A DNA stretch of 64,000 nucleotides from a virus. The stretch is taken from IMG/VR virus record IMGVR_UViG_3300045995_000722; one strand, given 5' to 3'. How positions within the stretch are numbered: the stretch's first letter is position 1; every line of letters starts with the position of its first letter. The notes beneath the pieces are model-generated. The model was given only the letters and a program-made list of their open reading frames with translations, had not been told where the DNA came from and made no database searches. The translations under genes were made by a program, and so were the position numbers. Of the stretch, positions 574-63,619 are shown in pieces.

Positions 574-659
574 ATTTTGTAAGTGGGCAGGGGAAAATCC
601 TCTGTCCTTTTTTGGTTTTGACTTCTCCTGAATGGTATAGTATAATAGGGAGAAACAAA

Positions 660-986
660 ATGAAATGTCTACGTTGCGGATATTGTTGTTGTTTTCTTGA
701 TGTGATAATTATTTCTCCATCAGCTATTAAATTAGATGGTAGTGTTGATTTTGAAGATGAGAAAAACTACGAACATAAGCCGATGAATGTTGAATGTCCA
801 CATTTACATTGGGATGGGGATTTTGCTTCTTGCGGGATTCATCATTATTCTTGGTTCATTGATACTCCTTGCCATGCCTACACACAAATAGGAAAAGAAA
901 ATTCCCCATGTAGATCAGGCGAATATTTCCAGAAAATCAAAATGAATATTCGAGAAAGGTTTCAGAGGGTTAAAAATGAACAGTAA
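660..986 (+). CDS. YkgJ-like Cys-cluster (Fe-S/Zn) protein
   Basis: CxxCxxCC N-terminus, later C..L..CGIH..PC; follows repeat promoter. Confidence 0.6.
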   Translation: MKCLRCGYCCCFLDVIIISPSAIKLDGSVDFEDEKNYEHKPMNVECPHLHWDGDFASCGIHHYSWFIDTPCHAYTQIGKENSPCRSGEYFQKIKMNIRERFQRVKNEQ

Positions 987-1737
987 AATTATCCCCAACA
1001 TTAGTAATTTCAATTTTGATTATCGAGTAGTCCGTCATGTCAATGTTACATCTGATGGTAGGGCTATTATTATTGATGGAGAACTTGATACTTATTTGAA
1101 GATTCATGAAATTCATTTTGGAGCAGACGGGGAAATTGTTGCTTATATTAAAGAACCGGAATGTCCTTATGGGGATGATCTTGAGGGAATGACATATGAA
1201 CTTCTTGAATATATGGAAGCCCTCAAAAAACCTATTCTTAATTTTGAATTCGTAAAGGATCAGACAAAAAGAAGTTCCCGAAGAATGAAACGAAGATACA
1301 AAAAAGATATGGAACCAGAGTGTGATATTGAACAGGCAAGTAAATCTTTTAAGGATTATGAAAAAGGTGAGGGGGATTTTGTTTCTTGGGATGAAGTTAA
1401 AGAAAAACATGGTTGGATTGACCCTGTTTTTGAATATATACCAGTAAAAGAAGCAATTGAAAAATTCGAAATGAATAAATTTAAAAATGAAGAAGTGGAG
1501 CAAATCATGTATACAGTGTTTGAGCTAGAAAAATGCTTGATTCCTTTTAACGATTGGGAAAATCATTATAAATATTTACCGGATGATAAATTTATAATGT
1601 TAAGAGATTATAATCCTCAAGATGAAGGACCGATAGGATTGGGGCATCATACTATAGTGGGTTACTTCATATTGGCTTCTGGACAAGGACCATTTTTGGT
1701 GTGGGCTGAACATGAGGAATTTGTAGAGAAGAATTAG
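976..1737 (+). CDS. hypothetical protein
   Basis: 253-aa ORF, stop abuts next repeat element. Confidence 0.75.
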   Translation: MNSKIIPNISNFNFDYRVVRHVNVTSDGRAIIIDGELDTYLKIHEIHFGADGEIVAYIKEPECPYGDDLEGMTYELLEYMEALKKPILNFEFVKDQTKRSSRRMKRRYKKDMEPECDIEQASKSFKDYEKGEGDFVSWDEVKEKHGWIDPVFEYIPVKEAIEKFEMNKFKNEEVEQIMYTVFELEKCLIPFNDWENHYKYLPDDKFIMLRDYNPQDEGPIGLGHHTIVGYFILASGQGPFLVWAEHEEFVEKN

Positions 1738-1801
1738 TTTTTTGGTTTTCGTTTTTCGAGAAGGGTATAGTATAATAGAATACTTTTAGGAGGGCAAAAA
1801 A

Positions 1802-2719
1802 ATGAGTCACTTTTTGGTTGGTGTAATTGTTCCCAAGGATACAGAGAATATCGAGGGAACTATTGAAGATTTATTGAAACCTTATGATGAAAATCAAGAA
1901 GTTGAAGAATATGAGCGTCCTTGTCATTGTGTAGGACAAGTAGCGAGAAGGGATGCTGTTCAAGCTGCTATTAAAGAATGTGGTACTATAGAGGAACTTC
2001 GGAAACGATTTGATAAAGAAGTTAGACAACCTCTAGTTGAGAAAATCAAAGCTGAAAGAAATCTTACGACTGGTGAAGTTTTCAATTTGCTTAGTCCTTG
2101 GTCAGAGGAAGATGAAGCAGTAGAACTTGATGGAAAATGGAAAGAGTGTATTGCTTCATTTCAAAAAATCGAGAAAGAAACTTTCGAGAATCATCCTGAA
2201 AAAGATAATCCTGACCCCACTTGTGGTTTTTATTCTGGTGAACGCCAGGAGTGGTGGGAAGAGGATGCAAAAGAGGGTGATCGTTATAAGGATGGTGAAG
2301 GTTGCGGTGGTACTGGTGTATATATGAGTACCTATAATCCGAAATCCCAATGGGATTGGTGGAGAATCGGTGGACGTTGGAATGGGGCAATCAAAGGCAC
2401 TCCTGAAAATGATGATCATGGATTCAATTTTCCACCCGAATTCGAAAAACCCGAAAATAATACAACTGATGTTAATGATTTGCTTGCTTTTGAAAAAGCA
2501 ATTGATAACATTGAAAATGAAAAAGAGAGAAAAACTGCACTTAAGGAATCTAGGCTTCCCTATGCTCTTGTTACCCCTGAAGGCGAATGGATTGAGAAGG
2601 GTGAAATGGGTTGGTGGGGCATGTCAAGCAATGAAAAGGACAATTGGAGAGAGATTGCCCTTGGTGTTTTCGAGAAATATGCTGACTATCTTGTGGTAGG
2701 TGTGGACTGCCATATTTAA
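1802..2719 (+). CDS. conserved phage hypothetical protein
   Basis: 305 aa, MSHFLVGV...NPKSQWDWWRIGGRW motif; promoter and GGAGG upstream. Confidence 0.85.
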   Translation: MSHFLVGVIVPKDTENIEGTIEDLLKPYDENQEVEEYERPCHCVGQVARRDAVQAAIKECGTIEELRKRFDKEVRQPLVEKIKAERNLTTGEVFNLLSPWSEEDEAVELDGKWKECIASFQKIEKETFENHPEKDNPDPTCGFYSGERQEWWEEDAKEGDRYKDGEGCGGTGVYMSTYNPKSQWDWWRIGGRWNGAIKGTPENDDHGFNFPPEFEKPENNTTDVNDLLAFEKAIDNIENEKERKTALKESRLPYALVTPEGEWIEKGEMGWWGMSSNEKDNWREIALGVFEKYADYLVVGVDCHI

Positions 2720-2726
2720 AAAATAA

Positions 2727-2760
2727 AATGGGAGTAGAAAGATGACTTTCTACTCCCATT
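2727..2760 (+). terminator. intrinsic terminator hairpin
   Basis: AATGGGAGTAGAAAG / CTTTCTACTCCCATT 15-bp inverted repeat. Confidence 0.75.
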
Positions 2761-2769
2761 GGAGTTATT

Positions 2770-7038: not shown

Positions 7039-7082
7039 TTTTTGGTTTTCGAGATTTAGAAATATAATAGGAGAAAAACACT

Positions 7083-7385
7083 ATGAGTTACGATAATGAT
7101 AATGATTCTGGGGAACTTATACTTGGGTTGATAATGCTTCCAATGGCTTTGCTTATTGATGGATTGGTAGTAATGCATTTGTGGAATTGGTTTATTCCCG
7201 TAATGTTCACCACTGTTAAAGCAATAAGTTTTGTTAAAGCTATAGGATTTTCATTAGTAGTAGGGTATTTAACCTATAAACCAGATATGTTGAGAGAAGA
7301 AAATAGAGCCAAAATAGCAGTAGCAACCATTGTATTGCCTTTCTGTTGGCTTCTAATTGGTTGGGTAATTCATCTGTTTATGTAA
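7083..7385 (+). CDS. membrane protein
   Basis: Three hydrophobic segments; GGAG SD. Confidence 0.75.
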   Translation: MSYDNDNDSGELILGLIMLPMALLIDGLVVMHLWNWFIPVMFTTVKAISFVKAIGFSLVVGYLTYKPDMLREENRAKIAVATIVLPFCWLLIGWVIHLFM

Positions 7386-9918: not shown

Positions 9919-11031
9919 GTGTTCAAGGTTCAAGAATATCTTCGGTCCGGTAAGACTCTCGAAGATTTAGAAACTGAATATAGTGTTACTGGTAGTGTTA
10001 ATGAGCAGTTAGGTGTAGTTTCACTTAATTATTCTCAAATATCAAGTGACTTATCTCAAGAGATATGCCAAGAGTGCCGAGGGCTTATTCTTGAATTGAA
10101 TACTTGGAATGTTGCTTCCAGATCGTTCCATAAGTTTTTCAATTTAGAGGAACCACAAGGGCAATTAGTAAATGAAAGATTTGATTGGAATTCCGCTGTT
10201 GTTCTTGATAAGGTTGATGGTTCCTTGATTCAGATGTACCACTATAATGGTGATTGGCATGTAGCAACTAGAAAAGACCCTATGGCAAATGGTCCGGTTG
10301 GTTCATTTGAAACAACCTTTAGGGAACTTGTGTTTGCTACAATGGAAGAAATGAAGTTTTCTTTCGATGAATTGTCACCGGAATATTTTTATTCTTTTGA
10401 ATTAACTACTCCGTTGAATGTTATAGTTGTTCCTTATAATGGACATAATTTGACATTTTTGGCTGCTTGGAAGAGGGATACATTAGAAGAAGTTCCTTTA
10501 ATAGAAATGCCCGAATTGACAGCTAAGAAAGTTAAGAGATTGCCTTTAACCAATATAGATGAAGTGCTGAAGTATATAGAGGTTCTTTCTCCTGTTGATG
10601 GAGAAGGAGTTGTGCTTCTTGATAAGCATTTGAATCGAATAAAGGTTAAGTCTGCCGAATATCTTAAGGCATTTCGTGCAGTTATGACTGCTGAAGCATC
10701 ACCTAGAAATCGAGTAGAGATTCTACTTAGTGATTCCTATGATGATATATATGGTTTGTTACCTTCTGCTTTGCAGAAGCAGATGAGTGAATTGCAAGAA
10801 AAATTACAACGATTCTTGTATACTGTACAAGAAACATACAATCAATATAAGGATATAGAATCACAAAAAGATTTCGCTTTAGCAATAAAGCATCTTTTCT
10901 ATTCTTCTTGGTTGTTCAATCTTCGGAAGGGATTAGCTTTAGAAGAAGTGATAAAGAAGACTCATATCGATACTGTTGTTGGTATGTTGGAGAAATTTGA
11001 AATACCTATTGACACGATAGAGGATTCGTGA
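9919..11031 (+). CDS. T4 Rnl1-like RNA ligase
   Basis: ECRGLILE, SFHKFFNL, motif I KVDGSLI, FELTTP, EGVV, KVK. Confidence 0.85.
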   Translation: MFKVQEYLRSGKTLEDLETEYSVTGSVNEQLGVVSLNYSQISSDLSQEICQECRGLILELNTWNVASRSFHKFFNLEEPQGQLVNERFDWNSAVVLDKVDGSLIQMYHYNGDWHVATRKDPMANGPVGSFETTFRELVFATMEEMKFSFDELSPEYFYSFELTTPLNVIVVPYNGHNLTFLAAWKRDTLEEVPLIEMPELTAKKVKRLPLTNIDEVLKYIEVLSPVDGEGVVLLDKHLNRIKVKSAEYLKAFRAVMTAEASPRNRVEILLSDSYDDIYGLLPSALQKQMSELQEKLQRFLYTVQETYNQYKDIESQKDFALAIKHLFYSSWLFNLRKGLALEEVIKKTHIDTVVGMLEKFEIPIDTIEDS

Positions 11032-30476: not shown

Positions 30477-30552
30477 TGGTGGGACCGGTGGGAATCGGAC
30501 CCACGACTCCCTGCTTAAAAGGCAGGTGCTCTAACCCCTGAGCTACGATCCC
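30477..30552 (-). tRNA. trnK: tRNA-Lys(TTT)
   Basis: Full cloverleaf CCTGC-CTTTTAA-GCAGG, encoded CCA; T loop TCCGATT (C55). Confidence 0.93.
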
Positions 30553-30601
30553 AAGTTTCTTCTACTATACTATACCACAAATGGGAATTGAAAACCAAAA
30601 A

Positions 30602-30862: not shown

Positions 30863-30989
30863 TTTATCCTCCCAAAAATCCTTTCTATTATACTATACCT
30901 GAATCTAAGAGTCAAAACCAAATTTGGTTTTTGGTTTTCGTTTTTCTGTTGGGGTATAATATAATGGATTAATTGGAAGGAGAGGAAAG

Positions 30990-35754: not shown

Positions 35755-36000
35755 ATGAGATTCACAATATCATATCACACAAGCCTTTACATGGTGACTC
35801 CACATGACAAGTTAGCAAAGATGTGGATCACTAACAATGTCCCCGATCCTCAGTATTTGGGAAATTCTTTCGCTGTAGAACCCCGTTACATTCAGCAGTT
35901 AGCTTATGGTATGCTTACAGATGGATGTAAGGTTGATATGGACGGTAAAACCCTGATTCTCGGTCCACAAGCAGAAGTTGTCTTTGCTACAGTAAATTAG
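35755..36000 (+). CDS. hypothetical protein
   Basis: After repeat/SD. Confidence 0.75.
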   Translation: MRFTISYHTSLYMVTPHDKLAKMWITNNVPDPQYLGNSFAVEPRYIQQLAYGMLTDGCKVDMDGKTLILGPQAEVVFATVN

Positions 36001-36038
36001 TTTTGGTTTTCAATTCTCCTTTCGGGGGTGGAAAAAAT

Positions 36039-36308
36039 ATGAGATATTTTGTCCAAGAGAATATATGTGAAACGGATACTCCTCTTTGGGTGGATGCGGA
36101 AAATGAACATAACGGGAAAATGGAAAAAGTTAGTTTTCCTCCCTATAACAAATTTGTCATGGGGATGTTTGTTACCGCAATAGATTTGGAAACTGCATTA
36201 GAAATAAATAAACACCGAGTCATTGCACGTAAAGACTGGTATAATTTCGGCAAGGTTCGTGAATGGGTAATTTATGCCCCGAAGGTCAAAGAAAAAGAGG
36301 AAACATAA
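36039..36308 (+). CDS. hypothetical protein
   Basis: After left-half-only repeat. Confidence 0.65.
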   Translation: MRYFVQENICETDTPLWVDAENEHNGKMEKVSFPPYNKFVMGMFVTAIDLETALEINKHRVIARKDWYNFGKVREWVIYAPKVKEKEET

Positions 36309-40983: not shown

Positions 40984-41145
40984 ATGATAATTGTTGAAGA
41001 CATGAGTGATGGGCAAGAAATAGTAACAGAGGATGAAATTAACATTCTCTTGCGAGCGGGTTGTGTGGAAGAACGCTATCCCGATATCTATGTTTATGAT
41101 GGGTTAATAGATGATAACTTTTTTGATTTGATCGGAAGAGATTAG
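40984..41145 (+). CDS. acidic hypothetical protein (53 aa)
   Basis: Manually translated; TAG is the repeat's TAG. Confidence 0.55.
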   Translation: MIIVEDMSDGQEIVTEDEINILLRAGCVEERYPDIYVYDGLIDDNFFDLIGRD

Positions 41146-41195
41146 TTTTGGTTTTCAATTCTTCAATCGGGTATAGTATAATGGAGGAAATTGAA

Positions 41196-41582
41196 ATGGA
41201 ATATAAAGCCACTGCAAAAGATAGACGAACGGTAGAATCCTTGCTTGAACATGTTGCCGATAGAGTTGTATGTCATCGTGATGGTACAATCAGTGCCAAG
41301 CGTGGATTCTTTTACAAACACGGGCAAACCTCTGAAGGATTCGCCAACAAAGTGATTAAGACTATAACTGGTATTTCATTGGTTGAGCATTTTGAGGATT
41401 GGAATGCTTGGCCGAAGGATAGCTGGTTTGTGGTCAAGTTCAAGATTGATCGCCCTATAACCATTGAAGACGAAAATAATGAGTGGAGTGATTGCCCTGC
41501 TTGTGGGGTCAATAAAACGCAAACTATTCTTTGCCCAACTTGTACAGATAGACGGATAAAGGATGTGCTGGGAGAACCTTAG
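41196..41582 (+). CDS. hypothetical protein with C-terminal Zn finger
   Basis: Flanked by repeats. Confidence 0.75.
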   Translation: MEYKATAKDRRTVESLLEHVADRVVCHRDGTISAKRGFFYKHGQTSEGFANKVIKTITGISLVEHFEDWNAWPKDSWFVVKFKIDRPITIEDENNEWSDCPACGVNKTQTILCPTCTDRRIKDVLGEP

Positions 41583-49799: not shown

Positions 49800-49914
49800 G
49801 ATTTTGCACGGGGCACCTCCACAGCACGGCAAAAGAGAAAGCGGGGACGATTACTTCCCCGCTTTCTCTGATTTTGGTTTTGAGAGTTATAATGTGGTAT
49901 AATATAATAGACTA

Positions 49915-50027
49915 GGGGCCGAAACATATAATCCCTATGGGCTGGACTAGAGAGCCAGCACCCACTAACTGGGGTCAAACGGGCTAGTTAGGCACAAAAG
50001 AGATCACCTGTGTAGGTGGTCTTTTTT
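49915..50027 (+). ncRNA. candidate small RNA cassette
   Basis: Repeat promoter without SD, no ORF, internal hairpins, terminator GATCACCT/AGGTGGTC-T6. Confidence 0.55.
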
Positions 50028-51859: not shown

Positions 51860-51909
51860 TTTTGGTTTTCAATATCCTTTCCGGGTATAATATAATGGAG
51901 GAAAATTCG

Positions 51910-52374: not shown

Positions 52375-52415
52375 TTTTTGGTTTTCAATTTCTTTTCAGG
52401 GTATAGTATAATGTC

Positions 52416-52649: not shown

Positions 52650-52761
52650 TCTATTTATGGTTTCCCCCTTCCATTAGTATGCGAACTATCCCCAATTCTC
52701 CCTTATTCAATTTTTGGTTTTCATTCCTATTTTTTGGTATAGTATAGTGGAGGAAAACCCA

Positions 52762-53082
52762 ATGACCAATATACCAATGAATACACCGTGGGGAATTGCT
52801 CAGACCCAAGATAAGGTTGCGGAAGGAATTATTTTCGTAACTACTGCAAGTCATGGGGGATTCTGTATTTCTCCTGAAGTTCATGCAAAAATGCCAAAGG
52901 CTTATCAGTCTACTTTTGCTCATGCTCCCAATAGGGACAAGAATTTCTGGTATGAGGAAGACTGCGATTATGCCAAGGTTATTCTGAGCTTCCCTGATAT
53001 GTTCATGGCAAAGGAAGTAGAAGTAGCCAAGAAAATGATAGAACAATATTTCCCTGAATCCCACATTGCCGCTAAGGGATAA
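52762..53082 (+). CDS. conserved mobile-element hypothetical protein
   Basis: TPWG.AQ......GI.FV.TASHGG....WYEEDC. Confidence 0.8.
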   Translation: MTNIPMNTPWGIAQTQDKVAEGIIFVTTASHGGFCISPEVHAKMPKAYQSTFAHAPNRDKNFWYEEDCDYAKVILSFPDMFMAKEVEVAKKMIEQYFPESHIAAKG

Positions 53083-53117
53083 TTGGTTTTCATTTCTATT
53101 TTTTGGTATAATATAAT

Positions 53118-53195
53118 GTGAGAGGTTCCCATAGGGAAGGCAACTGGTTAAAGGAGACGTGGTGCCCTGCTCCGGGCTAAATCCCATCCTCTCAC
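53118..53195 (+). promoter_or_regulatory. structured 5' leader (riboswitch-like)
   Basis: GTGAGAGG/CCTCTCAC closing stem, TTCCC/GGGAA, GGCAAC..GGTGCC. Confidence 0.45.
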
Positions 53196-53209
53196 TTAGG
53201 GAGAAATCA

Positions 53210-53434
53210 ATGTCAATCAAAACAAGAATTAGACCCCAAGTAAATGATGGTTGGATTGAAGGACCAATTCCTCCTCCTACTCGTCAATATTCCAAAGAGG
53301 AAATTGATGATCTGATTGTCCAAGCAAAAGTAAGGAGAATCAAGAGACAGCAAATTTCCCCTAAGATTCTTGCAATGTTGGATGAAAAGAGAAGAAGAGA
53401 AGCCAATTTCCAGAAGAAGAAGAAACGGAGATAA
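53210..53434 (+). CDS. basic hypothetical protein, paralog of 9444..9701
   Basis: GGGAG SD; shared IPPP..YSKEEI motif. Confidence 0.75.
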   Translation: MSIKTRIRPQVNDGWIEGPIPPPTRQYSKEEIDDLIVQAKVRRIKRQQISPKILAMLDEKRRREANFQKKKKRR

Positions 53435-53436
53435 TC

Positions 53437-53646
53437 ATGGGGAAGATAGATGAAAGATATTTCACGGAAATGGAAAAGGCAATAGATAATGCCAGCATAG
53501 AAACAATCAGAACCATGAAAGAATTGGAATCCAGGAATGTTGGGGCAGAAATATATATGCCCTATGTTATGACTGGTTTGGCTTCAATCATGCAGACACA
53601 GTTGGGAATAATCAAATTCCTAAAGTTGATGAACGAAAATGAATAA
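53437..53646 (+). CDS. hypothetical protein
   Basis: GGAG SD. Confidence 0.7.
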   Translation: MGKIDERYFTEMEKAIDNASIETIRTMKELESRNVGAEIYMPYVMTGLASIMQTQLGIIKFLKLMNENE

Positions 53647-53818
53647 AGAAATAAAAGAGATAACATCAGAACTCCAAGACTTGATACAAAGAGTACGAGG
53701 AATTGCATTGAGAATTGGTGATTATGAAATTGTGGATAAAATGGATGACTTATCTAAAGAAGCAGAAGAATCAAGACTGCATATGGAATTCCATTTATCA
53801 GGTCAAAATGATGATTGA
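53639..53818 (+). CDS. hypothetical protein (59 aa)
   Basis: Manually translated. Confidence 0.55.
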   Translation: MNKEIKEITSELQDLIQRVRGIALRIGDYEIVDKMDDLSKEAEESRLHMEFHLSGQNDD

Positions 53819-53943
53819 TCGTTAGGGCAAATTGCCCCAACGATATAATGCGAACTAACCCCATTTTTTTGATATTCAATTTTTTGGTTGCCCAATTGGT
53901 TTTCATTTCTTATTTTTGGTATAGTATAATGGAGGGAATCCAA

Positions 53944-54204
53944 ATGTTCTACGATGAAAACCTTTTCAGTGGTTTGTGGGTTGAAGATGAAACCCGGAAT
54001 ATGTGGATTATTCCCGATGCTGTTAATTCGGGAGGAATGGGCATAGAAGGCCCAGATATTCCACAAATCATCGATAAACTTTACCAGATTCGTTCTGATA
54101 ATGGGGGGATCGTGGAAAGAAGAGATGTGGAAAAACTCGGTCTTTTTGTTGTTGATGATTGTTTGAAAAGATACAACGAAATAGACGGATATTATCACGC
54201 CTGA
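53944..54204 (+). CDS. hypothetical protein
   Basis: Flanked by repeats. Confidence 0.75.
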   Translation: MFYDENLFSGLWVEDETRNMWIIPDAVNSGGMGIEGPDIPQIIDKLYQIRSDNGGIVERRDVEKLGLFVVDDCLKRYNEIDGYYHA

Positions 54205-54258
54205 TTTTGGTTTTCAATCTTGAAACCAGGTATAATATAATAGATAGGAGGTGACATA

Positions 54259-54426
54259 ATGAGTGATTCTAATTCTGGTCTTAGTATTGGAGCAATAGTT
54301 GGCATGGGTCTTGCGGCTTGGATTTCTTGGACAAATGTCCCGTCTGTTTTTTGGGCAATTTTCCACGGTGTCTTTGGTTGGCTTTACGTCATCTATGCCT
54401 TTATTGTGGGTAAAGTTCATTTCTAA
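54259..54426 (+). CDS. small membrane protein (55 aa)
   Basis: Manually translated; GGAGGT SD; ISW..SVFWAIFHG.FGWLYVIY. Confidence 0.7.
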   Translation: MSDSNSGLSIGAIVGMGLAAWISWTNVPSVFWAIFHGVFGWLYVIYAFIVGKVHF

Positions 54427-54442
54427 GAAAAGGAAATATATC

Positions 54443-54616
54443 ATGTCTATTATAAAACTTAGTGTTGATCTGGATAAAGCCAATGATCCAGAACAGATAT
54501 TGCGGCTTTTATCTGCATTGCCATTTGACGATCACATGTCATTGATTGTTATAAATAATGGTAAAAGGACAAGCGTACATCCCCATGAATTATCAAATGA
54601 AGCTTGCAAGGACTAA
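54443..54616 (+). CDS. hypothetical protein
   Basis: AAGGA SD. Confidence 0.6.
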   Translation: MSIIKLSVDLDKANDPEQILRLLSALPFDDHMSLIVINNGKRTSVHPHELSNEACKD

Positions 54617-54673
54617 TTTCTAGTTTTGGTTTTCAAACCCCCATTTAGGTATAATATAATGGAGGGAACTACC

Positions 54674-54970
54674 ATGAACTACATAGAACAAAATTGCACA
54701 ATTGTACATGATGGACAGAAATTCACAGCAAGTGGGGCAATTGTGAATGATATTTTTGTCATTGCTTACTTAGGTAAGAATGGGGAACTGAATAATTGTC
54801 ATGGGACACCAAGTGGAACTTATCGAATAACTTCCACTTGGAAAACACCCCGCAGTTATATATCTAATGTAATGTGTCAAGTTGAAGCCAAAATTGATGG
54901 GGTGATTTACACGGGACGCTCCTGTGGAATTGGAATGGCTTTCAAAGGAAAAAGGAAATCCCGGAACTAG
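54674..54970 (+). CDS. hypothetical protein
   Basis: Flanked by repeats. Confidence 0.75.
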   Translation: MNYIEQNCTIVHDGQKFTASGAIVNDIFVIAYLGKNGELNNCHGTPSGTYRITSTWKTPRSYISNVMCQVEAKIDGVIYTGRSCGIGMAFKGKRKSRN

Positions 54971-55022
54971 TTTTGGTTTTCAAACTTACTTTAGGGTATA
55001 GTATAGTGGAGGAACCCGAACA

Positions 55023-55397
55023 ATGAAAACAGCAACAGAAATTCAAAGCGAACTGGGACAATTCTACGGAACAGAAGGTTATGTCCGGTGGTCTCCCCTA
55101 TTCCGAAACTGTCTTCTGACCGATGGGGCACACTTCATCGCTGAATCTTGTGGGGCTTATTGGCTCATGGATGCAATCGCTTCCTATTTGCCGAAAGCCA
55201 AGAACGACGGCATGATGTTTGCAGAGTTGAAAGTCAAGGACAATTCCGCAACTCTGACCCTTCACGATGGCAGGAAACCCCGGAAAGTCTACGCAACACA
55301 AGTGATTGAGTATACAGACTTTCCTCTGCCCGAAATCACAATATGGGCAGAGTATGACGGGGAAAAGTGGGTACTCTTGCTCCCCTCGGAACATTAA
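55023..55397 (+). CDS. conserved mobile-element hypothetical protein (DUF6876-like)
   Basis: FYGTE.Y......LLTDG..F.A..CGAYWL.D.IAS...Q.IEYTDFPL.EI. Confidence 0.8.
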   Translation: MKTATEIQSELGQFYGTEGYVRWSPLFRNCLLTDGAHFIAESCGAYWLMDAIASYLPKAKNDGMMFAELKVKDNSATLTLHDGRKPRKVYATQVIEYTDFPLPEITIWAEYDGEKWVLLLPSEH

Positions 55398-55544
55398 GAG
55401 GGGAAACGAATAAAAGGGGGCGAAAGCCCCCTTACCCCCCCCCCACTAATATGCGAACTACACTAACTTTTCTAATACTCAGTTTTTTGGTTGCCTATTT
55501 TGGTTTTCAATCTTAAAATTTGGTATAGTATAATGGAGATAATC

Positions 55545-55883
55545 ATGGATATCGGTATAGCTTTAATTCGTGTTGTTGGTGATCCCACTTCTACTGAGCA
55601 AATGCTTAGTAAGATAGCGGCTTGTTTCCCTGGTCCTACCACAAAGATATATGAAACAAATCAAGCTGTGTCGTTCAGGAAGGACTTATTATTTTCTGAA
55701 GTTTACCCTGCATTGCACTTGATAGGTATCGATATTGTTGATAATGATAATATCATAGTGTATACAGAAGAAGGGGAACAACAGGGAATAAGGCCAATAA
55801 GTAAAAAGGCTATGAAAGCCACTGAAATATATGACTCTTTTGCGTCTCTTCAACATTATCAAGATGAGCTTTTGAATTCTTAG
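55545..55883 (+). CDS. hypothetical protein
   Basis: Flanked by repeats. Confidence 0.75.
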   Translation: MDIGIALIRVVGDPTSTEQMLSKIAACFPGPTTKIYETNQAVSFRKDLLFSEVYPALHLIGIDIVDNDNIIVYTEEGEQQGIRPISKKAMKATEIYDSFASLQHYQDELLNS

Positions 55884-55932
55884 TTTTGGTTTTCAATCCT
55901 CATTTCTGGTATAGTATAGTGGAGGAACCCGA

Positions 55933-56136
55933 ATGGCTAAAGATAAATTCCAGACCTGGCTTGAAAACCGCATTAAGATGCTAGAAAAGGAATCTGGCAA
56001 TCGTAGTCATGGTTATGCAACCAGAGCGGGTATCGGACAAAAAGTTGGTGAAGCCACAACAATTCTTGAAGCATATATCAAACACATCGATGGGGAACAT
56101 AATATAGTGGAGGAACCCGAAAATGAAGAGAGTTGA
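55933..56136 (+). CDS. hypothetical protein, paralog of 58451..58663
   Basis: DKF.TWLE.RIKML.KE..NRSHG..TRAGIGQKVGEA; reads through a half repeat. Confidence 0.75.
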   Translation: MAKDKFQTWLENRIKMLEKESGNRSHGYATRAGIGQKVGEATTILEAYIKHIDGEHNIVEEPENEES

Positions 56137-56449
56137 CACAAGCAAAGTAGACCCCAAAATTCTCGCTGATATACGGGAAATGACTGGGTTGAAGTTGGAA
56201 GACAATTACACCGAAGACGAACTGCTCACCCTTTACCTTCGGTATGTCTGTGATATAGTGAAGGTGGATCATATTCTCGCCGCTATTGCCAACATCCATG
56301 AAGCGGCAAAAGAAAATCAGTATATAATTCATTGGTTGTCTGGACCTGATACAGAAATCAGTGGATATGACCAGGCTGATGCTTTTCGTAAAGCAGGAAT
56401 AGGGGCAGGGGCAATTCCCGCTGTGGATTGGGTTGAAGAAGTAAAGTAG
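56123..56449 (+). CDS. hypothetical protein
   Basis: After right-half-only repeat. Confidence 0.75.
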   Translation: MKRVDTSKVDPKILADIREMTGLKLEDNYTEDELLTLYLRYVCDIVKVDHILAAIANIHEAAKENQYIIHWLSGPDTEISGYDQADAFRKAGIGAGAIPAVDWVEEVK

Positions 56450-56499
56450 TTTTGGTTTTCAATCCTCATTTCTGGTATAATATAGTGGAGGAACCCGAA

Positions 56500-56688
56500 A
56501 TGTGGCTTATAGATGATCTTGGTTATCGTGTTCAGCGTGTCAATAGCAATGGGGAAAGATATGTAGTTTTTGACACATATCGCCCTACTAGTAGTTGGTA
56601 CTGTTCCCAACCACTGAATACCCCACAAGAGGCTTTTGACTACATCTTGAGCCTTGCGGGGTATGATGGATGTGATATGCGGATATAG
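56500..56688 (+). CDS. hypothetical protein
   Basis: After repeat/SD. Confidence 0.7.
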   Translation: MWLIDDLGYRVQRVNSNGERYVVFDTYRPTSSWYCSQPLNTPQEAFDYILSLAGYDGCDMRI

Positions 56689-56693
56689 GGAGT

Positions 56694-56888
56694 ATGATTG
56701 AAATGGCAAAAGATAAAGTGATGGAAGAAATAGGGAAACTCAATGGGATGATTTATGATCTTGCAAAAGATGAATCATTACCCCATCATGCCCATAATGA
56801 TGTTGTGGATTTGATGGTTCAACTCAATAGTGTTCTTCGTTCAATGTCAGAAAGAACAGCGGAAGAGTTGGCGAGTTTGAGATCATAG
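56694..56888 (+). CDS. hypothetical protein
   Basis: GGAG SD. Confidence 0.65.
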   Translation: MIEMAKDKVMEEIGKLNGMIYDLAKDESLPHHAHNDVVDLMVQLNSVLRSMSERTAEELASLRS

Positions 56889-57004
56889 GGATTTTATCCC
56901 TTTTATTTATATGCGAACTACTCCAGATTTTCCGATACTCAGTTTTTGATCGCCCAATTTGGTTTTCAATCTTAAAATTTGGTATAGTATAATGGAGCAA
57001 ACAA

Positions 57005-57295
57005 ATGGTGTCACTAAAGGAAAAAGTAGGACAAATGAATGGGTTGGGAATCAAACTCGCCAATACCATTGAACATAATCCCGATCTATTTGAGTTGTTG
57101 ACTTCTGACGAAACAGATACTATTTATGGTGTTGCTGATGGACTCACGGAAGAATTTGTCATGCAACGCATAGAAGGTCGTTGTTCCTTACAAGCAATGT
57201 TAGATTGGTCTTGTGATAAATTGGAAGGTTTTGTTGATACTCGTTTGAAAGAATTGCATAACATAGGGGAAAAACTACTTCTGGGGAATTCCTAG
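57005..57295 (+). CDS. hypothetical protein
   Basis: Flanked by repeats. Confidence 0.75.
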   Translation: MVSLKEKVGQMNGLGIKLANTIEHNPDLFELLTSDETDTIYGVADGLTEEFVMQRIEGRCSLQAMLDWSCDKLEGFVDTRLKELHNIGEKLLLGNS

Positions 57296-57363
57296 TTTTG
57301 GTTTTCAATCCTTGTTTCTGGTATAGTATAATGTAAGCCAAATACCTTGGAGGAGGTCAAGAA

Positions 57364-57777
57364 ATGATTCGTGGTATGGATTGTCAGTCACCCGCAATAT
57401 GTGTTTTATCCGAATCTCCTGAAGTGTTTTATCTTACTGGTAGCCGCTTCTTCGGAACGGAGGCAGAATTCTCTGACTACGATTTTTTCGTCCAGCGGGC
57501 AGCAATGGGGACAAGTGAGCGACATCTAGTAAGGAACGGTTTTCGGTTGGATAGTGACACCCGGTATTCTGACAAGGTTTACATTCGGGACAATGTCCAT
57601 GTTCAGATAGTGGGAAACGCCCCACTGAAGAACCGAATTCAAGACCTCATGAAGAGGATGTTGCCAAAAGAAGACTTGCGGCTTCTCCTTACCGATAAGG
57701 TCAGAGCACGACGATTGTGGTCGCTATTCAATAGTCTGGTGATGGTCGATCCAACAAAACCGGAAAGAGCTTGGTAG
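57364..57777 (+). CDS. minimal nucleotidyltransferase (Pol-beta superfamily)
   Basis: YLTGSRFFG....SDYDFF. Confidence 0.7.
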   Translation: MIRGMDCQSPAICVLSESPEVFYLTGSRFFGTEAEFSDYDFFVQRAAMGTSERHLVRNGFRLDSDTRYSDKVYIRDNVHVQIVGNAPLKNRIQDLMKRMLPKEDLRLLLTDKVRARRLWSLFNSLVMVDPTKPERAW

Positions 57778-57939
57778 GTTAAGTAAGGACAGGGCAGGGG
57801 AACTCCACAAAGGGAAATCTCATCTACGGTAGGATGGGGTTTCCCACTTTATTTGATATGCGAACTACACCAATTTTATTGTTATTCAATTTTGGTTTTG
57901 AATTCTTAATATTGGTATAATATAGTGGAGGAACTGAAA

Positions 57940-58155
57940 ATGCTGATATTTAATATAACTCCACAACCGCAACTCCAAGAAAGATATCCCATGTTTAAGG
58001 TGGAACCTCAAACAGAAGAAAGCAAGAATTGGCTTCGACTCCACCCTGAATATAATAGGGATTTTCTTGACATATTCTATCTTCAAGGGTTCATATTTGA
58101 TGTGGAAGTGTCCAGTGGAAATGTCCTTGAAAATGGGGTCAAACAGTTCGTTTGA
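57940..58155 (+). CDS. hypothetical protein
   Basis: Flanked by repeats. Confidence 0.7.
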   Translation: MLIFNITPQPQLQERYPMFKVEPQTEESKNWLRLHPEYNRDFLDIFYLQGFIFDVEVSSGNVLENGVKQFV

Positions 58156-58207
58156 TTCTTGGTTTTCAATCCCCAACTAGGGTATATTATAGTAGTGGAG
58201 GGACAAG

Positions 58208-58375
58208 ATGGAAACAGTTGAATACAGAGTCCGTGAGTTTGAGAAGGTTTCTACCCCATACGTAGAATTCCCAGCGAAGATCAAAATCATAAAACCAGAT
58301 GGCGAAACTAACTGGTTAGATATTACTGAAGATGAGCTTTCCCGTATCCGTGAATTACTTTGCACTGTGAAGTAG
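58208..58375 (+). CDS. hypothetical protein (55 aa)
   Basis: Manually translated; after repeat/SD. Confidence 0.7.
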   Translation: METVEYRVREFEKVSTPYVEFPAKIKIIKPDGETNWLDITEDELSRIRELLCTVK

Positions 58376-58450
58376 GGGATTTCCCCTTTTTATTTTAATG
58401 CGAACTAACCCGAAAACAAAAATAATCAGTTTTAAGATTAGTGATATGAA

Positions 58451-58663
58451 CTATCTCATTAGATGTGTGATCGGTGAGTATGGATGTGGTGTTTTTGGCG
58501 TTTTTTGTGATTGAATATTGTCATATTTCTCAAGAATCAACATAGCTTCACCAACTTTTTGCCCGATACCTGCTCTGGTTTCATCGCCATGACTGCGATT
58601 ATCAGCCTCTTTCTTTAACATCTTGATTCGTTCTTCAAGCCATGTTTTGAATTTATCTTCCAT
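58451..58663 (-). CDS. hypothetical protein, paralog of 55933..56136
   Basis: High similarity; after repeat/SD. Confidence 0.75.
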   Translation of the reverse strand: MEDKFKTWLEERIKMLKKEADNRSHGDETRAGIGQKVGEAMLILEKYDNIQSQKTPKTPHPYSPITHLMR

Positions 58664-58786
58664 TGGGGTTTCCTCCATTACTATACCCAAACTAGAATTA
58701 TAAAACCAAAACTAGTAAGTGGTATTATTTATATTCTCTCAACCACCAATAGAAAACCTTCAAAGTCTATGGTGAAACCCCTGGTT

Positions 58787-59017
58787 TTATGCTTCTTGTG
58801 TTCCGCACTTACAATATATCCAAATTCCTCCAACATCTATGCAAGCAGTAAAAGTGGCTATTTCTCCGCACCTGGAGCATTTGATGGTTCCTCTTGCTGA
58901 TCTTCCTTGTTCATTTACTCTGAAAGATATTAGAGAACTACCAAGATGATTTTTCAGCATTGATTCTATCATTTGGGTTTTCTCCAAAATGGATTTGGTG
59001 AGAACCATACGGTTCAT
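58787..59017 (-). CDS. Zn-ribbon protein
   Basis: CSRC...CKC. Confidence 0.65.
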   Translation of the reverse strand: MNRMVLTKSILEKTQMIESMLKNHLGSSLISFRVNEQGRSARGTIKCSRCGEIATFTACIDVGGIWIYCKCGTQEA

Positions 59018-59082
59018 CTTTAATCACGGGCTAGTGAACCAAACCATTATATTATACCACAAAAAGAGTTTCAAAACCAAAA

Positions 59083-59442
59083 CTAGTAAGTGGTAACATC
59101 TACAAGTGACTTCAAATGATCGGGACATCTGCCAGGTGTCCACTTGCCACAGAATTGATAAGCCTCTGGCTTTTCAACTTCCTTGAGAAGTTTTACCTGG
59201 TTGTAGTAGGGGCGAACCCTGAAAACACAACAATCAATAATGAAGTCAACACAGAGGAATTCTTGTGGTCCAGGTCTTGCAAAAACACAAGGAACATTAA
59301 TAGCCCCAACCAAACCAACCATACCAGGTGTTATGGTCACGGTTTTCTTGCCCCTCATATGTTCACCCGAACAAGACTTATCAGAACATATCATTTCCTC
59401 AGTAAGAGTTACGGTGTCCCCAACTTTTATCTTTTTATTCAT
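59083..59442 (-). CDS. Cys-containing hypothetical protein
   Basis: TAATG overlap; TAG abuts repeat. Confidence 0.7.
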   Translation of the reverse strand: MNKKIKVGDTVTLTEEMICSDKSCSGEHMRGKKTVTITPGMVGLVGAINVPCVFARPGPQEFLCVDFIIDCCVFRVRPYYNQVKLLKEVEKPEAYQFCGKWTPGRCPDHLKSLVDVTTY

Positions 59443-59666
59443 TATAATGCCTTCAATGGAAAATCAGGGTGAGTATCACACCACAATTTGATGTCAGCAA
59501 GTTTTGCGGGGAGTAAACGATCAAAATACTTAATCCCCTTTTCTGCTGCTCTCTTGTGAGGTTCACTATCTACTCTAACCCGAAATACAACTCTTGCATC
59601 ATTTTGCCAAGAACCATACTGAGCCACATAAAATCTGAACCGACCATCACCAAATCTGAATGTCAT
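59442..59666 (-). CDS. hypothetical protein
   Basis: After repeat/SD. Confidence 0.7.
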   Translation of the reverse strand: MTFRFGDGRFRFYVAQYGSWQNDARVVFRVRVDSEPHKRAAEKGIKYFDRLLPAKLADIKLWCDTHPDFPLKAL

Positions 59667-59764
59667 CTCATCCCTCTATTATATTATACCCTAAACCAAT
59701 AATCAAAACCAAAACTGAATAACCGATAAATCTGCGGTAGTTCGCATTATCTTTCACCCCAAAA

Positions 59765-59804
59765 TAGACAAAGGACATGGAAGTGATCCCATGTCCTTTG
59801 TCTA
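59765..59804 (-). terminator. intrinsic terminator
   Basis: 16-bp IR TAGACAAAGGACATGG / CCATGTCCTTTGTCTA. Confidence 0.8.
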
Positions 59805-59982
59805 CTAACTTATTTTAGGTTGTATTATACCTTGATGATAGTTGTAGAGTTTCCCCCGCCACAGGCTAGGATTCACAAGTCCCCCCGCTTTAAGCTAGGA
59901 TTCTCACCATCATTGTTGGCTTGGTGGAGGAAATTCCATACTAAACAACCCCGGAAGTTGGTGACATATCATATCTCTCTCC
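59765..59982 (-). ncRNA. candidate ncRNA cassette A
   Basis: Repeat promoter, no substantial ORF, internal tandem GTG(A)GAATCCTAGC..GCGGGGG, strong terminator. Confidence 0.4.
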
Positions 59983-60139
59983 ACCATTATATTATACCAC
60001 AAACCAAGAATCAAAACCAAATTGAACGATCAAAAACTGAATAATCCCCAATCCTTCCTAGTTCGCATTTCCCCCAAATGCAAAACCGGTGCGAACTCTT
60101 GCCGCACCAGGTCTTGCCACTCTACTATTCTATACCTTT

Positions 60140-60405
60140 TTTCAATATACTATGAATTGGTAGTCTGTTTTACTCCTCCTCGACTACTTGGGTTAAACCC
60201 AATATCAAGCAAGGCTTTCAGACAGGTTTAATTCTGAACTCTGAGATTTGGTCATGACTTCCATCCTCAGTACCAACCCGTAGGGCATAAATTTTAGCAT
60301 AACACTTTGCCAGTTTGTTATACTAAGTGGAGGAGATTCCATACCACTAGCCAGGGAGCGAACCTTTCGTTAGTGGACTTTGGATTCTCACGTCGCTCTC
60401 TTCAC
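60140..60405 (-). ncRNA. candidate ncRNA cassette B (paralog of A); a 45-codon ORF is an alternative
   Basis: Near-identical promoter to A; shares GTATGGAATYTCCTCCAC and GTGAGAATCC. Confidence 0.35.
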
Positions 60406-60668
60406 CACCATTATACTATACCACAAACCAAGAATCAAAACCAAATTCCTGACAGATCATAAGAAAATTTCCCTAGTTCGCACATTCCCCATACTCAATT
60501 TTTCAGGGGCAGCTAGTTACACCTTGTAACCAACTGCCCCATTCAAGTGTGATCAAAAAAAATAAATAATTTTATTTTGTGTTTTTTGACTCTACTTCAT
60601 GACTACTTCCCAACCTTTCTCACTAGATAGTCGTTGCAAAAAATAAATAAAGGTTCATTGCTCAGATG

Positions 60669-60860
60669 TTACGCTGTAGCTTTTCCCTCCCCTTTTGACC
60701 CCAGTATTTCAGAAAGACGCTTGGGCTTAAGCCCCACAATAACAGATTCCCCGTCAGCTTGTATCTCATCCCATAAGGAATTGCGGAGAGAATCTTCTAT
60801 GAATTCACGGGTTGTTTTGCTTGGATTTCCAGTGAAAAAAGCTCGTCTTGATTTCAGCAT
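60669..60860 (-). CDS. hypothetical protein
   Basis: After repeat/SD. Confidence 0.65.
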   Translation of the reverse strand: MLKSRRAFFTGNPSKTTREFIEDSLRNSLWDEIQADGESVIVGLKPKRLSEILGSKGEGKATA

Positions 60861-60909
60861 CGGACTTCCTCCACTATACTATACCAATAACTAGAAATGA
60901 AAACCAAAA

Positions 60910-61383
60910 CTAATACCGGGTTTTGACCTTGAATGTTCGGTTATCAGTTGCATTCGGCACTGAATTAACCATAGCAGGAGAAAGAGCAGTATATACCCTT
61001 CCATTTCCCATTGCGGTCATTTTTTCCGCTAATTCTTTTACCCAGCGTTCTGCATCAAAAAAATTGGTGGCAGAAACCAACTGAGTTTCCCATTGTTCTT
61101 CTTCTTTTTCTCCATCTTTACACATAAAAACAACAGAATAAAGGTGAAGGGATTCTTTCTTATGGGTCAACTTCCCCGCCATTTCTAGGGAATCTTCGTT
61201 TGCCTCAAGCAAAGTTTCAACCAAGGCATGTATGTCATGAGTGTCCATGTGTGGAATATAAGGAGCAGTATCCATGTGGAAGTATACTCCATCTTTGTAG
61301 GAGTCTACTTGAACTATTCCTTTGTCCATTACAGCTTCTTGAACAAAAAATCCCATTCCACATCGTTTCTTGAATCTGAGCAT
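60910..61383 (-). CDS. hypothetical protein
   Basis: Flanked by repeats. Confidence 0.75.
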   Translation of the reverse strand: MLRFKKRCGMGFFVQEAVMDKGIVQVDSYKDGVYFHMDTAPYIPHMDTHDIHALVETLLEANEDSLEMAGKLTHKKESLHLYSVVFMCKDGEKEEEQWETQLVSATNFFDAERWVKELAEKMTAMGNGRVYTALSPAMVNSVPNATDNRTFKVKTRY

Positions 61384-61690: not shown

Positions 61691-61882
61691 TTAGAAACCA
61701 AATTCTTCTTCTTCTTCATTCCGTGTAGCTTTTGAATTAGCAGGTTGAATATCCCACTGCTCGGGGACTTTGTCTCCTACCTCCAGTCCAAAACAAGCAT
61801 TGGGGGCTTCTACAAAGTAATAGTTATCCCCTATTCTCTCAGCTATTCCTCCACCTTGGGTTCCGTATACAGGATTACTCAT
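61691..61882 (-). CDS. hypothetical protein
   Basis: After repeat/SD. Confidence 0.75.
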   Translation of the reverse strand: MSNPVYGTQGGGIAERIGDNYYFVEAPNACFGLEVGDKVPEQWDIQPANSKATRNEEEEEFGF

Positions 61883-61931
61883 TGGACTTCCTCCATTATA
61901 CTATACCTAGTTCGAGTATTCAAAACCAAAA

Positions 61932-62150
61932 CTAAATACAATGGGCGTATTCTACCCCTTGGGATTCTACCAAAAGATCAGCAAAAAAATCCAAAGCATC
62001 AGCAGCATTATGGAAATTCACGGATTTGCTAATCAAAACTTCTGCATCAGGGGCATATAAGTATACCAATCTATACTTGAAAGGATTTGGCTTCTTATCC
62101 CAACAAGTTAGTTTGATCCCAAAAGTTTCAAGCAGTGTACGAGTTTTCAT
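61932..62150 (-). CDS. hypothetical protein
   Basis: Flanked by repeats. Confidence 0.7.
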   Translation of the reverse strand: MKTRTLLETFGIKLTCWDKKPNPFKYRLVYLYAPDAEVLISKSVNFHNAADALDFFADLLVESQGVEYAHCI

Positions 62151-62258
62151 TGGTTTCCCCTCTACTATACTATACCAGAAAACCAAATTCAAAACCAAAA
62201 CTGAATAATCTAAAACCCCTATTAGTTCGCACATTAGAATAAGGGGAAAAATTTCCCC

Positions 62259-62627
62259 TTATTCAGCAAAAGTTCTGATCTCGTCACCAGTCAAACCCAA
62301 TCCCCATATTTCATTATAGTCCTGCAAAACAGCTATCTTACAATCGATAGGCAACTTGGCAAAGTTGATTTTCTTTCCAAGGTGACTATAGGTAGGTCGA
62401 TCAATCTGTGTTGGGGACTCCCCATGTTGTCCTATCCCCTGCGGGTGAAACGGCGAAGCGTTCATGCCTAAGTATTGAAACCAACCATCTCTTTCTCGGT
62501 AATTTCCCGTATAAACCACGGTGTAACGATCCATAGCCCCATCTGGTCCAGAATCATATACCCGTATATTTTTCGGCTGGTTGTCAGGCAACAAACTTTC
62601 TCGTCTTTCCTCTTGTCTCTTGGTCAT
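62259..62627 (-). CDS. conserved phage hypothetical protein
   Basis: YD.G....DRYTVVY...M.A.PFHPQG.GQ.G...HLGK.I.F.KLP..C. Confidence 0.8.
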   Translation of the reverse strand: MTKRQEERRESLLPDNQPKNIRVYDSGPDGAMDRYTVVYTGNYRERDGWFQYLGMNASPFHPQGIGQHGESPTQIDRPTYSHLGKKINFAKLPIDCKIAVLQDYNEIWGLGLTGDEIRTFAE

Positions 62628-62881
62628 GTGATTTCCCTCTACTATACTATACCCAGAAACTAAATTCAAAACCAAAAAACTGAATAAACCAAAATTCCCC
62701 TTAGTTCGCATTATTCCCATAATAAACAATGAGGGGGCAGGAAACCGGTTTCCTCCCCCTCTGTTGCAGTTCAAAAATTAAATTAAAAGTGTATTAGTTT
62801 TGTATTGTTTACGCGATAACCACCCTCTTTCTTGTTTTCTTCTATTATACTATACCGGGTTCGGGGTTTCAAAACCAAAAA

Positions 62882-63487
62882 CTAATCAAGCCTTCCATCG
62901 GCGTGTGCCCTGATTCCTGCCTCTGCCAAAACACCCGCGTAAGCTCTAGCCCAAGCCATTTTACGCTCGTATGACTGGCTACGATCACGAGGGTAAATAA
63001 TCATAGCCCTCTGATAATCGCTATAACCTCCCCCATGATGCTTCTTGGCATAGTTCGCCGCTTGGGAATTTGCTGGGCGAATTGTTACCCAACCGAACCC
63101 ACAAACTCCTTCGGGAACATGCCATTCTTGTTTAACCCGTGAATTATCATCTAACGGGTTGACATGTTGCTGTACAATCATAGGAATAGGTGTCACCGCG
63201 TCATACGCCTCTTTCCCTGCCTTCTCAGCGGCAAGGAATAGCTTTCGCAATTCAACCTTCCCAAAGTGAGGGTTTGCCTCTTTCATGGTTTGTGGCAACT
63301 TATCCAGAGTATGAAAAGTTGAAACCCCATGTAAGTTGGCATACTCATGAGTGATTGGCTCTTCGGTTTCGGTCCAAGGTCGCTCACCTTCTGAACGAGT
63401 TCTGAGCCAATAGGACTTTGACTTGGTACTTGTCACAATCACAAAAGGCTCTTTGTTTCTTGGGTGAAATTCTCGTTTCCAGTTCAT
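62882..63487 (-). CDS. conserved phage hypothetical protein
   Basis: GVCGFGWV.I.PA...SQSYERK.A.A.AYA.VL...GI.A....RLD. Confidence 0.85.
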   Translation of the reverse strand: MNWKREFHPRNKEPFVIVTSTKSKSYWLRTRSEGERPWTETEEPITHEYANLHGVSTFHTLDKLPQTMKEANPHFGKVELRKLFLAAEKAGKEAYDAVTPIPMIVQQHVNPLDDNSRVKQEWHVPEGVCGFGWVTIRPANSQAANYAKKHHGGGYSDYQRAMIIYPRDRSQSYERKMAWARAYAGVLAEAGIRAHADGRLD

Positions 63488-63619
63488 CGGGGTTTCCTCC
63501 ATTATACTATACCCAAAACAATAATTGAAAACCAAAGTTGGGCGCCCAAAACTGAAAGTAAAACTGAATAAAATAATTGGGGGCTTAGTTCGCATATAAA
63601 ATTAGGGGGCGATTTGCCC

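Follow-up and report, generated by a model that had tools for sequence, protein, structure and literature searches.

A 64,000-nt stretch of DNA from a large uncultured phage of river metagenomes (IMG/VR virus record IMGVR_UViG_3300045995_000722; the whole stretch is called the window below) carries 98 copies of one composite element, in which an upstream box, a TATA-rich core and a Shine-Dalgarno (SD) sequence stand in fixed order. The reading that we favour, with moderate confidence, is that this repeat is a compact module for starting both transcription and translation, which also behaves as a regulatory cassette like the PeSLs of T4-like phages. PeSLs are composite units of early promoter, stem-loop and SD found in the hyperplastic regions of those genomes (PMC2839356, PMC4122927). 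The present element is distinguished by its scale, its 21 invariant positions, the fusion of stop codon, promoter and SD within about 50 bp, and a non-canonical box that changes between phages at fixed geometry. The sequence covered was about 70 kb, namely the window and short flanks, of the phage's own 75,960-bp contig; most of the genome lies beyond it.

Scanning with the 13-mer GGTATARTATART gave 107 matches at two mismatches or fewer, against 7.0 +/- 2.6 in shuffled sequence. Full elements, in which the box TTGGTTTT lies exactly 14 nt 5' of GGTATARTATART, numbered 98 and showed no spacing variants; the box was exact in 93 and had one mismatch in the other five. Their consensus was (TAG)TT-TTGGTTTT-(C/G)A(A/T)TYYYNNWWYNK-GGTATA(G/A)TATA(A/G)T-(G/A)(G/T)A(G/A)G. 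The G at position 0 of the core was invariant, while position 1 allowed A. Conserved information, as a per-position sum, came to about 50 bits, whereas about 11 bits are enough for 100 sites in this much DNA. The mean interval of 653 bp and the median unit of 566 bp bear out an earlier note on this DNA, which had estimated about 100 copies of a module of stop codon, promoter and ribosome site, roughly one every 600 bp. The array runs past both window ends, with six more copies in 4.8 kb on the left (L045) and two on the right (L033/L047), and comprises at least 106 copies in total. Independent JGI and Logan assemblies of other samples were 100% identical over stretches of 1.4-9.9 kb, and an assembly artefact was therefore ruled out.

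All 98 copies pointed at the downstream feature, tRNAs included, as the earlier note had stated, and they followed the strand blocks; the single off-block copy, at 26295 (+), faces tRNA-Gln. The stop codon of an upstream open reading frame (ORF) lay 0-6 nt before the box in 49 of the 98 (TAG 28, TAA 11, TGA 10), TAG being enriched relative to its 32% share of all stops. The previous description of dozens of stop codons abutting the box without a terminator was borne out. About 15% of all copies do follow a terminator-like hairpin. Nine of the ten positions listed for this arrangement were correct, and the tenth, 36000, precedes a half-element that has no 13-mer.

On the downstream side, the base directly after the 13-mer was a purine in every copy (98/98). 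GGAGG occupies positions +13 to +17 in 44 copies, and most of the rest carry a close variant. In six copies these positions read GTAAG and a separate SD lies further 3', and the pattern GKARG is retained even where the actual SD sits further downstream. A start codon followed 10-16 nt past the 13-mer in 62 of the 98. By simple calls of ORFs of at least 40 amino acids (aa), the 97 units contained one ORF in 53 cases, two in 27, three to eight in 14 and none in three; 83 of about 182 ORFs had an element copy of their own. The proposed division into single-gene cassettes thus describes 53 units and not the array as a whole.

Judged by its anatomy, the element is most likely a promoter joined to an SD; no other reading accommodates all of its geometry, its orientation and its placement before tRNAs and ORF-free units. 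Since it heads tRNA-Glu, tRNA-Lys and ORF-free units, it would act at the level of transcription and not only as a ribosome site. Copies also stand at the heads of strand blocks and in divergent pairs. The GGAGG, at an ideal distance from the ATG, is by its sequence the ribosome site.

In the mechanism that we propose, an RNA polymerase holoenzyme would read a two-part promoter made up of the invariant TTGGTTTT and, 14 bp on, GGTATA(R)T, with either the host primary sigma factor or a phage-coded factor as the reader of the box. The most likely transcription start is the invariant purine that adjoins the 13-mer on its 3' side; in most copies the mRNA would then begin with the GGAGG, 7-9 nt ahead of the start codon. 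Because half of the copies begin at the preceding stop codon, the distance from stop to start is only about 50 bp. Transcription would re-initiate before about every second small gene, with few terminators between. The cargo would be mostly ORFans of presumed early or accessory function, together with ArdC, RNA ligases, an HNH nuclease and tRNAs, and its expression would probably be early.

Two sigma70-type registers fit the element by sequence. Register A (TTSAWT-17-TATART) predicts a start about 6-7 nt past the 13-mer, downstream of the SD. Register B (TTGGTT-18-TATA(G/A)T with an invariant extended -10 G) puts the start at the first base past the 13-mer, the invariant purine. The sigma70 geometry first suggested, TTSAWN-17-TATAAT, does fit, but it is not the sole register and probably not the best. 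Short of proof, register B seems preferable, because the SD then stays in the mRNA, because it accounts both for the invariance of G at position 0 and for the tolerance of A at position 1, and because the body of tRNA-Glu begins just 6 nt past the 13-mer. It is also favoured because register A shows a 52:45 C/G split at the third and most critical base of its -35; register A fails in the relatives as well. The best-conserved box is not TTGACA-like. A promoter for a single-subunit (T7-like) polymerase was set aside: from the conserved box down to the predicted start is 28-35 bp, and single-subunit polymerases do not contact DNA that far upstream. The phage was not found in any RNA run searched.

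No relative was found at the DNA level: megablast against GenBank phages matched a tRNA only, and exact-pattern scans of IMG/VR and JGI metagenomes for the element gave single, chance-level matches. At the protein level, the contigs of relatives share few genes with the window, in shuffled order, and four of them carry dense promoter-like repeats of their own. The JGI contig L036 (15.6 kb, same sample) has 12 copies of TTsGkTyT-N14-(T)GGTATATAGTAGT, and the ENA contig L162 has 25 copies of TYCCCAATT-N14-CGTAta..AAT in 21 kb. L035 has 5-6 copies of TTCTACCTG-N17-GGTATA, and L037 has about five of TTTGGTAAATT-N13-15-TATAGTA-type core. The repeats of L036 and L162 stand before small genes with the layout box-N14-SGTA, as here. 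The L162 copies also share recurring spacers (gaacgataat). The new point of this analysis is that the layout of box, N14 and SGTA core is, by sequence comparison, common to the relatives while the box is genome-specific.

This genome-specific box bears on the identity of the reader. A primary sigma factor wants one -35, TTGACA in every case, whereas the box differs at the matching position of each genome (TTGGTTTT, TTsGkTyT, TYCCCAATT) with N14 and SGTA after each, and in no register does the L162 core, CGTAta..AAT, match a sigma70 -10. These features point towards a phage-lineage-specific reader, although they do not prove one. We regard it as a serious possibility, if not quite an even one, that the reader of the same module is a factor specific to the phage, such as a phage sigma, a MotA/AsiA-like pair or a phage RNA polymerase, for which the box is a private site. 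Such a factor would suit a box that is invariant in the genome despite the variable spacer adjoining it, and an information content far above that needed for 100 sites; phages phiEco32 and 7-11, whose motifs differ along with their diverged sigma factors, offer a precedent (PMC8948821). It fits less well with the good sigma70-type hexamers at 17-18 bp, with the loose conservation of the L036 box, and with the rule that the genes of small ORFan-rich regions are normally early ones and depend on the host enzyme for transcription. Nor did the 30 largest ORFs of the window yield a sigma, RNA polymerase or MotA-like domain, most of the genome being unseen.

The homologous genes in L036 lie behind promoters of the L036 type. 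Therefore, promoter and gene do not appear to travel together between distant phages, and since each relative has its own box, homology of the element would be of use only within one genome or in exchange between close kin. As a tentative extension, the layout could be clade-wide, heading dozens to a hundred small genes in each phage, and each phage could have its own box, in some at slightly different spacing, read by a fast-evolving phage specificity factor (sigma-like, MotA-like or a phage polymerase), with recombination reshuffling a library of about 100 units. If so, the phage would hold an accessory-gene library of about 100 units that only that phage can express.

The copies bear footprints of exchange with each other. 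Adjacent elements shared 7.16 of 14 spacer bases, compared with 6.09 expected (0 of 5000 permutations; p<0.0002), and similarity was still above expectation at rank distance 2 (p=0.008). Spacers were identical in six pairs, and in five of these the partners lie within 1.5 kb of each other. The identity of twins spans about 55 bp and ends exactly at the stop codon and the ATG. At 55522, 55908, 56474 and 56981 the copies follow a nested A-B-B-A order, where A1 and A2 are 88% identical over 90 bp and flank the pair B1/B2. The C/G variant at -14 also occurs in blocks along the genome. Twins that bracket one or two genes are the expected footprint of circle insertion within an element, or of unequal exchange or gene conversion. 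The footprints show sequence exchange between copies, not gain or loss of cassettes. The copies would be homologous by descent, with neighbours swapping sequence via duplication, gene conversion or unequal crossing-over. A role of the element as a recombination joint is plausible: the copies would be expression plugs offering about 50 bp of homology for insertion, loss and reordering of genes.

Several points weigh against reading the repeat as a start module and PeSL-like cassette. Promoter activity and the start site are predictions from sequence, and neither sigma70 register accounts for the 21 invariant positions. The sharing of spacers between neighbours could be explained by gene conversion alone, without movement of cassettes. 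Cassette gain or loss was not seen directly, all other assemblies of this phage being 100% identical. The phage proteins are singletons in 90% protein clusters and their nearest relatives are 42-58% identical, none above 58%, which leaves no close kin to compare. There are only four weak paralogue pairs in the whole window; tandem gene duplication, considered as the source of the array, was therefore rejected as the main process. About 85% of the copies are without a stem-loop, the feature that defines a PeSL, and T4-like ancestry is no more than a possibility. Finally, the earlier note had named junctions joining two elements as a sign of cassette turnover, and these did not hold up. When public contigs of four river runs were compared with positions 41000-60999, the apparent joints were due to repeat cross-mapping, with sides of 35-47 nt and loose ends matching other element copies. 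An apparent deletion junction at 41142 was cross-mapping too, its true locus (40501-40559) lying just outside the stretch compared.

Another reading is that the element is a promoter only, whose copies are alike through selection for one strong promoter and local duplication while gene turnover proceeds elsewhere by illegitimate recombination. We consider this possible but doubtful. No element-bounded indel, circle or junction occurred in any data set (other assemblies and the contigs of the four river runs), the population was clonal across five river samples, and the homologous genes of relatives sit behind their own version of the promoter. Apparent strain variants with differing gene lists in other assemblies and samples were rejected: all were 100% identical and differed in gene calling only. 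A promoter without a role in plasticity does not, however, readily explain why spacers are preferentially common to neighbours and why the edges of identity are sharp at both the stop codon and the ATG. Like the half-elements and nested twin pairs, these features require that elements recombine with, or are copied from, one another, and recombination at PeSLs was shown experimentally in RB49/phi1 (PMC2839356).

Terminators and a second motif accompany part of the array. A terminator-like hairpin of GC pairs with a T tail was found within 130 nt upstream of 15 of the 98 elements, compared with 5% of random positions, and in four of the 15 the T run of the box doubles as the T tail. The 9-bp motif TGCGAACTA occurs at about 25 sites at unit boundaries, usually in the order terminator hairpin, TGCGAACTA, fixed N15, TATTCAG and then the promoter box; this long 5' module is present at about 18 of the 98 elements. 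At two sites, 26669 and 58399, the pair of TGCGAACTA and TATTCAG stands without a promoter. Because TGCGAACTA is independent of orientation, its arrangement suggests a protein-binding site and not a component of the promoter. Besides the partial copies at 7042 and 23087 and the 11-mer variant (Table 1), tandem box duplications were found at 9871, 30924, 37590 and 62186. These degraded and half copies are similar to the 'half PeSLs' that have been described close to indels of T4-like phages. A literature search found no relevant paper on the element's 11-mer.

The remaining two explanations fare worse. An element acting mainly as a repressor operator, like the 'stoperators' of cluster A mycobacteriophages, which are operators for a repressor, or as an RNA processing site that cuts long transcripts, would agree with its position at stop codons, its orientation with transcription and the long read-through transcripts that are likely where terminators are few. 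It is improbable, since the boxes lie at a promoter-like distance and are followed by the purine and SD, copies stand at strand-block heads, in divergent pairs and before tRNAs, where no upstream transcript exists, and the Rfam search detected no RNA family other than the tRNAs. Slightly less probable still is a true integron-like system in which a recombinase acts on the element or on TGCGAACTA to move cassettes: the recurrence of TGCGAACTA at unit boundaries in either orientation is unusual for a promoter part, but the motif accompanies few elements, no integrase or recombinase domain was present among the 30 largest ORFs (the earlier note had likewise recognised no integrase in the window), no attC-like imperfect inverted repeats were seen in the window, and each unit has its own promoter with no shared common promoter (Pc).

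Table 1. Positions of the element array, of individual and variant copies, and of other features in the window.
Feature	Position	Strand	Description
Array of 98 elements	612..63535	both	each copy on the strand of the genes it heads; pattern scan
Typical compact unit	41143..41198	+	TAG stop 41143-41145, box 41148-41155, 13-mer 41170-41182, GGAGG 41183-41187, ATG 41196
Element B1	55881..55935	+	near-identical to B2 over about 55 bp, stop codon to ATG; 14/14 spacer identity
Element B2, twin of B1	56447..56502	+	B1/B2 pair brackets two ORFs
Composite A1	55410..55547	+	GC hairpin and T tail 55414-55433, TGCGAACTA 55452-55460, TACTCAG, partial extra box, 13-mer 55522-55534
Composite A2, twin of A1	56887..57007	+	hairpin 56887-56901, TGCGAACTA 56912-56920, 13-mer 56981-56993
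Half-element	35998..36041	+	TAG stop, box and spacer intact, no 13-mer; spacer followed by SD-like GGGGTGG and ATG
Divergent back-to-back pair	30887..30965	both	at -/+ strand switch; boxes form 18-bp palindrome 30914-30931; extra tandem box
Element heading tRNA-Glu	26124..26241	-	no ORF; mature tRNA 5' end 6 nt past 13-mer
Element heading tRNA-Lys	30477..30598	-	tRNA begins 11 nt past 13-mer
Terminator-fused element	49834..50027	+	hairpin 49834-49869, T tail merging into box, 13-mer 49896-49908
Two adjacent ORF-poor units	59910..60445	-	spacers of heading elements identical; 13-mers end at 59998 and 60422
Partial element	7042-7085		box and partial -10
Partial element	23060-23094	-	box and partial -10
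11-mer variant	58663-58716	-	2-bp deletion in 13-mer, at 58709; still before GGAGG and ATG
TGCGAACTA, example sites	55452-55460, 56912-56920, 57859-57867; 62702-62710 (-)		
TGCGAACTA, inverted, five places	44251-44259, 42673-42680, 37180-37188, 50044-50052, 19131-19139		9 nt from TATTCAG
Rnl1-type RNA ligase	9919-11031		
Second ligase-like protein	20322-20942		

The window is gene-dense, with about 85% coding sequence, 35-41% GC and about 170-180 small ORFs. It is divided into four strand blocks, with which the GC skew agrees (+ 1-19.7k, - 19.7-30.9k, + 30.9-58.4k, - 58.4-64k). Apart from the two ligases, the few products that could be recognised are a nucleotide-sugar epimerase, a DUF932 protein, an HNH nuclease, a PD-(D/E)XK nuclease, an ArdC-type anti-restriction protein and a cytidylyltransferase; three tRNAs (Glu, Lys, Gln) are also encoded. 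Such products are typical of the accessory or early regions of large phages. Nearly all remaining products are ORFans. Over a short stretch, a 151-aa ORF at 43726-44181 matches the ribosomal protein L7/L12 C-terminal domain (PF00542), with an E value of 6e-6 that is just above the cut-off. No T4 core gene was present in the window, and the sole link to T4 is a 42%-identical homologue of the DUF932 gene that adjoins rIIA/rIIB on a 180-kb contig. The clearest gene copied within the array is the paralogue pair 55933-56136 (+) and 58451-58663 (-), with 78% identity over 45 aa; both sit behind an element copy or variant.

An Rfam search of the window returned the three tRNAs and no other RNA family. 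Directly left of the window, L045:4055-5365 holds a further five tRNA genes (Ser x3, Cys, Gly), and the tRNA-Ser at L045:4055 begins 9 nt past an element copy. Between the off-block copy at 26295 (+) and tRNA-Gln, about 275 nt (26308-26582) contain no convincing ORF and gave no Rfam match. The 13-mer of the terminator-fused element is followed by about 110 nt without an ORF or GGAGG. The related contig L036 encodes a 515-aa Ro60/TROVE and vWA protein (L036:2312-3859; precomputed Pfam matches), which may be relevant to the ORF-free, structured-RNA-like units of the window.

With about one copy per 650 bp, the array ranks with the densest and most uniform promoter arrays in nature that are known to us. 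It shows how far gene boundaries can be compressed in a phage, with stop codon, promoter, ribosome site and start codon in about 50 bp. The 98 natural variants of one promoter, differing in their spacers, form a ready series for studies of promoter strength. The recurrence of the same geometry with a different box in the relatives is a concrete and testable lead to a new promoter-specificity system. The cargo of about 170 mostly unknown small proteins, which includes ArdC and RNA-repair enzymes, is a likely source of functions in host takeover and anti-defence.

Among known systems, integron arrays share with the window a long run of small, mostly single-gene units of unknown function with a recurring boundary. 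Integrons have IntI, attI/attC and one Pc, whereas each unit here has its own promoter, no integrase was seen among the 30 largest ORFs, and no attC-like site was seen in the window. Unlike attC, the boundaries here are direct-repeat promoters, and the hairpins at about 15% of units are ordinary terminators with a GC stem and T tail. The array is not an integron. The word integron-like, used by the earlier note, is appropriate only as the analogy that has already been drawn for PeSLs (PMC2839356).

Phages phiEco32 (motif tAATGTAtA, start 6-8 bp downstream) and 7-11 (motif GTAAtg-16-aCTA) also have highly conserved non-canonical motifs that differ between related phages as the phage sigma diverged (PMC8948821). 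Their GTATA-type core with a start 6-9 bp downstream would, by analogy, put the start of the present element at its invariant purine. They have, however, 6-8 middle or late promoters per genome, compared with about 100 here before small accessory genes, and no sigma gene was seen among the 30 largest ORFs of the window.

T4 middle promoters combine a MotA box near -30 with a sigma70 -10. The present element is similar in that a conserved box of about 9-10 bp near -30 replaces the canonical -35 and is paired with a TA-rich -10, and repeated cassettes of such promoters are possible: the 'PmSLs' of nt-1 carry T4-type middle promoters (PMC4122927). The box differs, being TTGGTTTT here and TGCTT in T4, and its distance to the -10 is about 3 bp longer. 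A scan of six ORFs of 197-227 aa found no MotA-like domain.

The closest parallel is with the PeSLs, known from RB49/phi1, T4/PST and KVP40/nt-1, which are tied to indels between close relatives, form mini-circles and exist as degraded half copies (Arbiol 2010, PMC2839356; Comeau 2014, PMC4122927). The idea of a recombination joint is thus not new but belongs to the PeSL model of these authors. Like PeSLs, the element is a repeated composite unit that ends in an SD and start codon (62 copies here), is concentrated among ORFans, includes half and degraded copies, has a genome-specific consensus conserved well beyond the needs of a promoter, and is proposed to offer joints for homologous recombination. 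Unlike PeSLs, most copies lack a stem-loop and half begin at the preceding stop codon instead, the boxes are invariant, the upstream box is not TTGACA-like and the SD is fused to the predicted start site. There are also 98 copies in 64 kb, compared with eight in about 5 kb in the densest PeSL case found (PMC2839356, PMC4122927). By this comparison, the array appears functionally PeSL-like, in an extreme and mostly hairpin-less version. It would extend the PeSL principle, an expression plug that is also a recombination joint, to a form lacking the stem-loop and to an uncultured freshwater phage that is unrelated or very distant.

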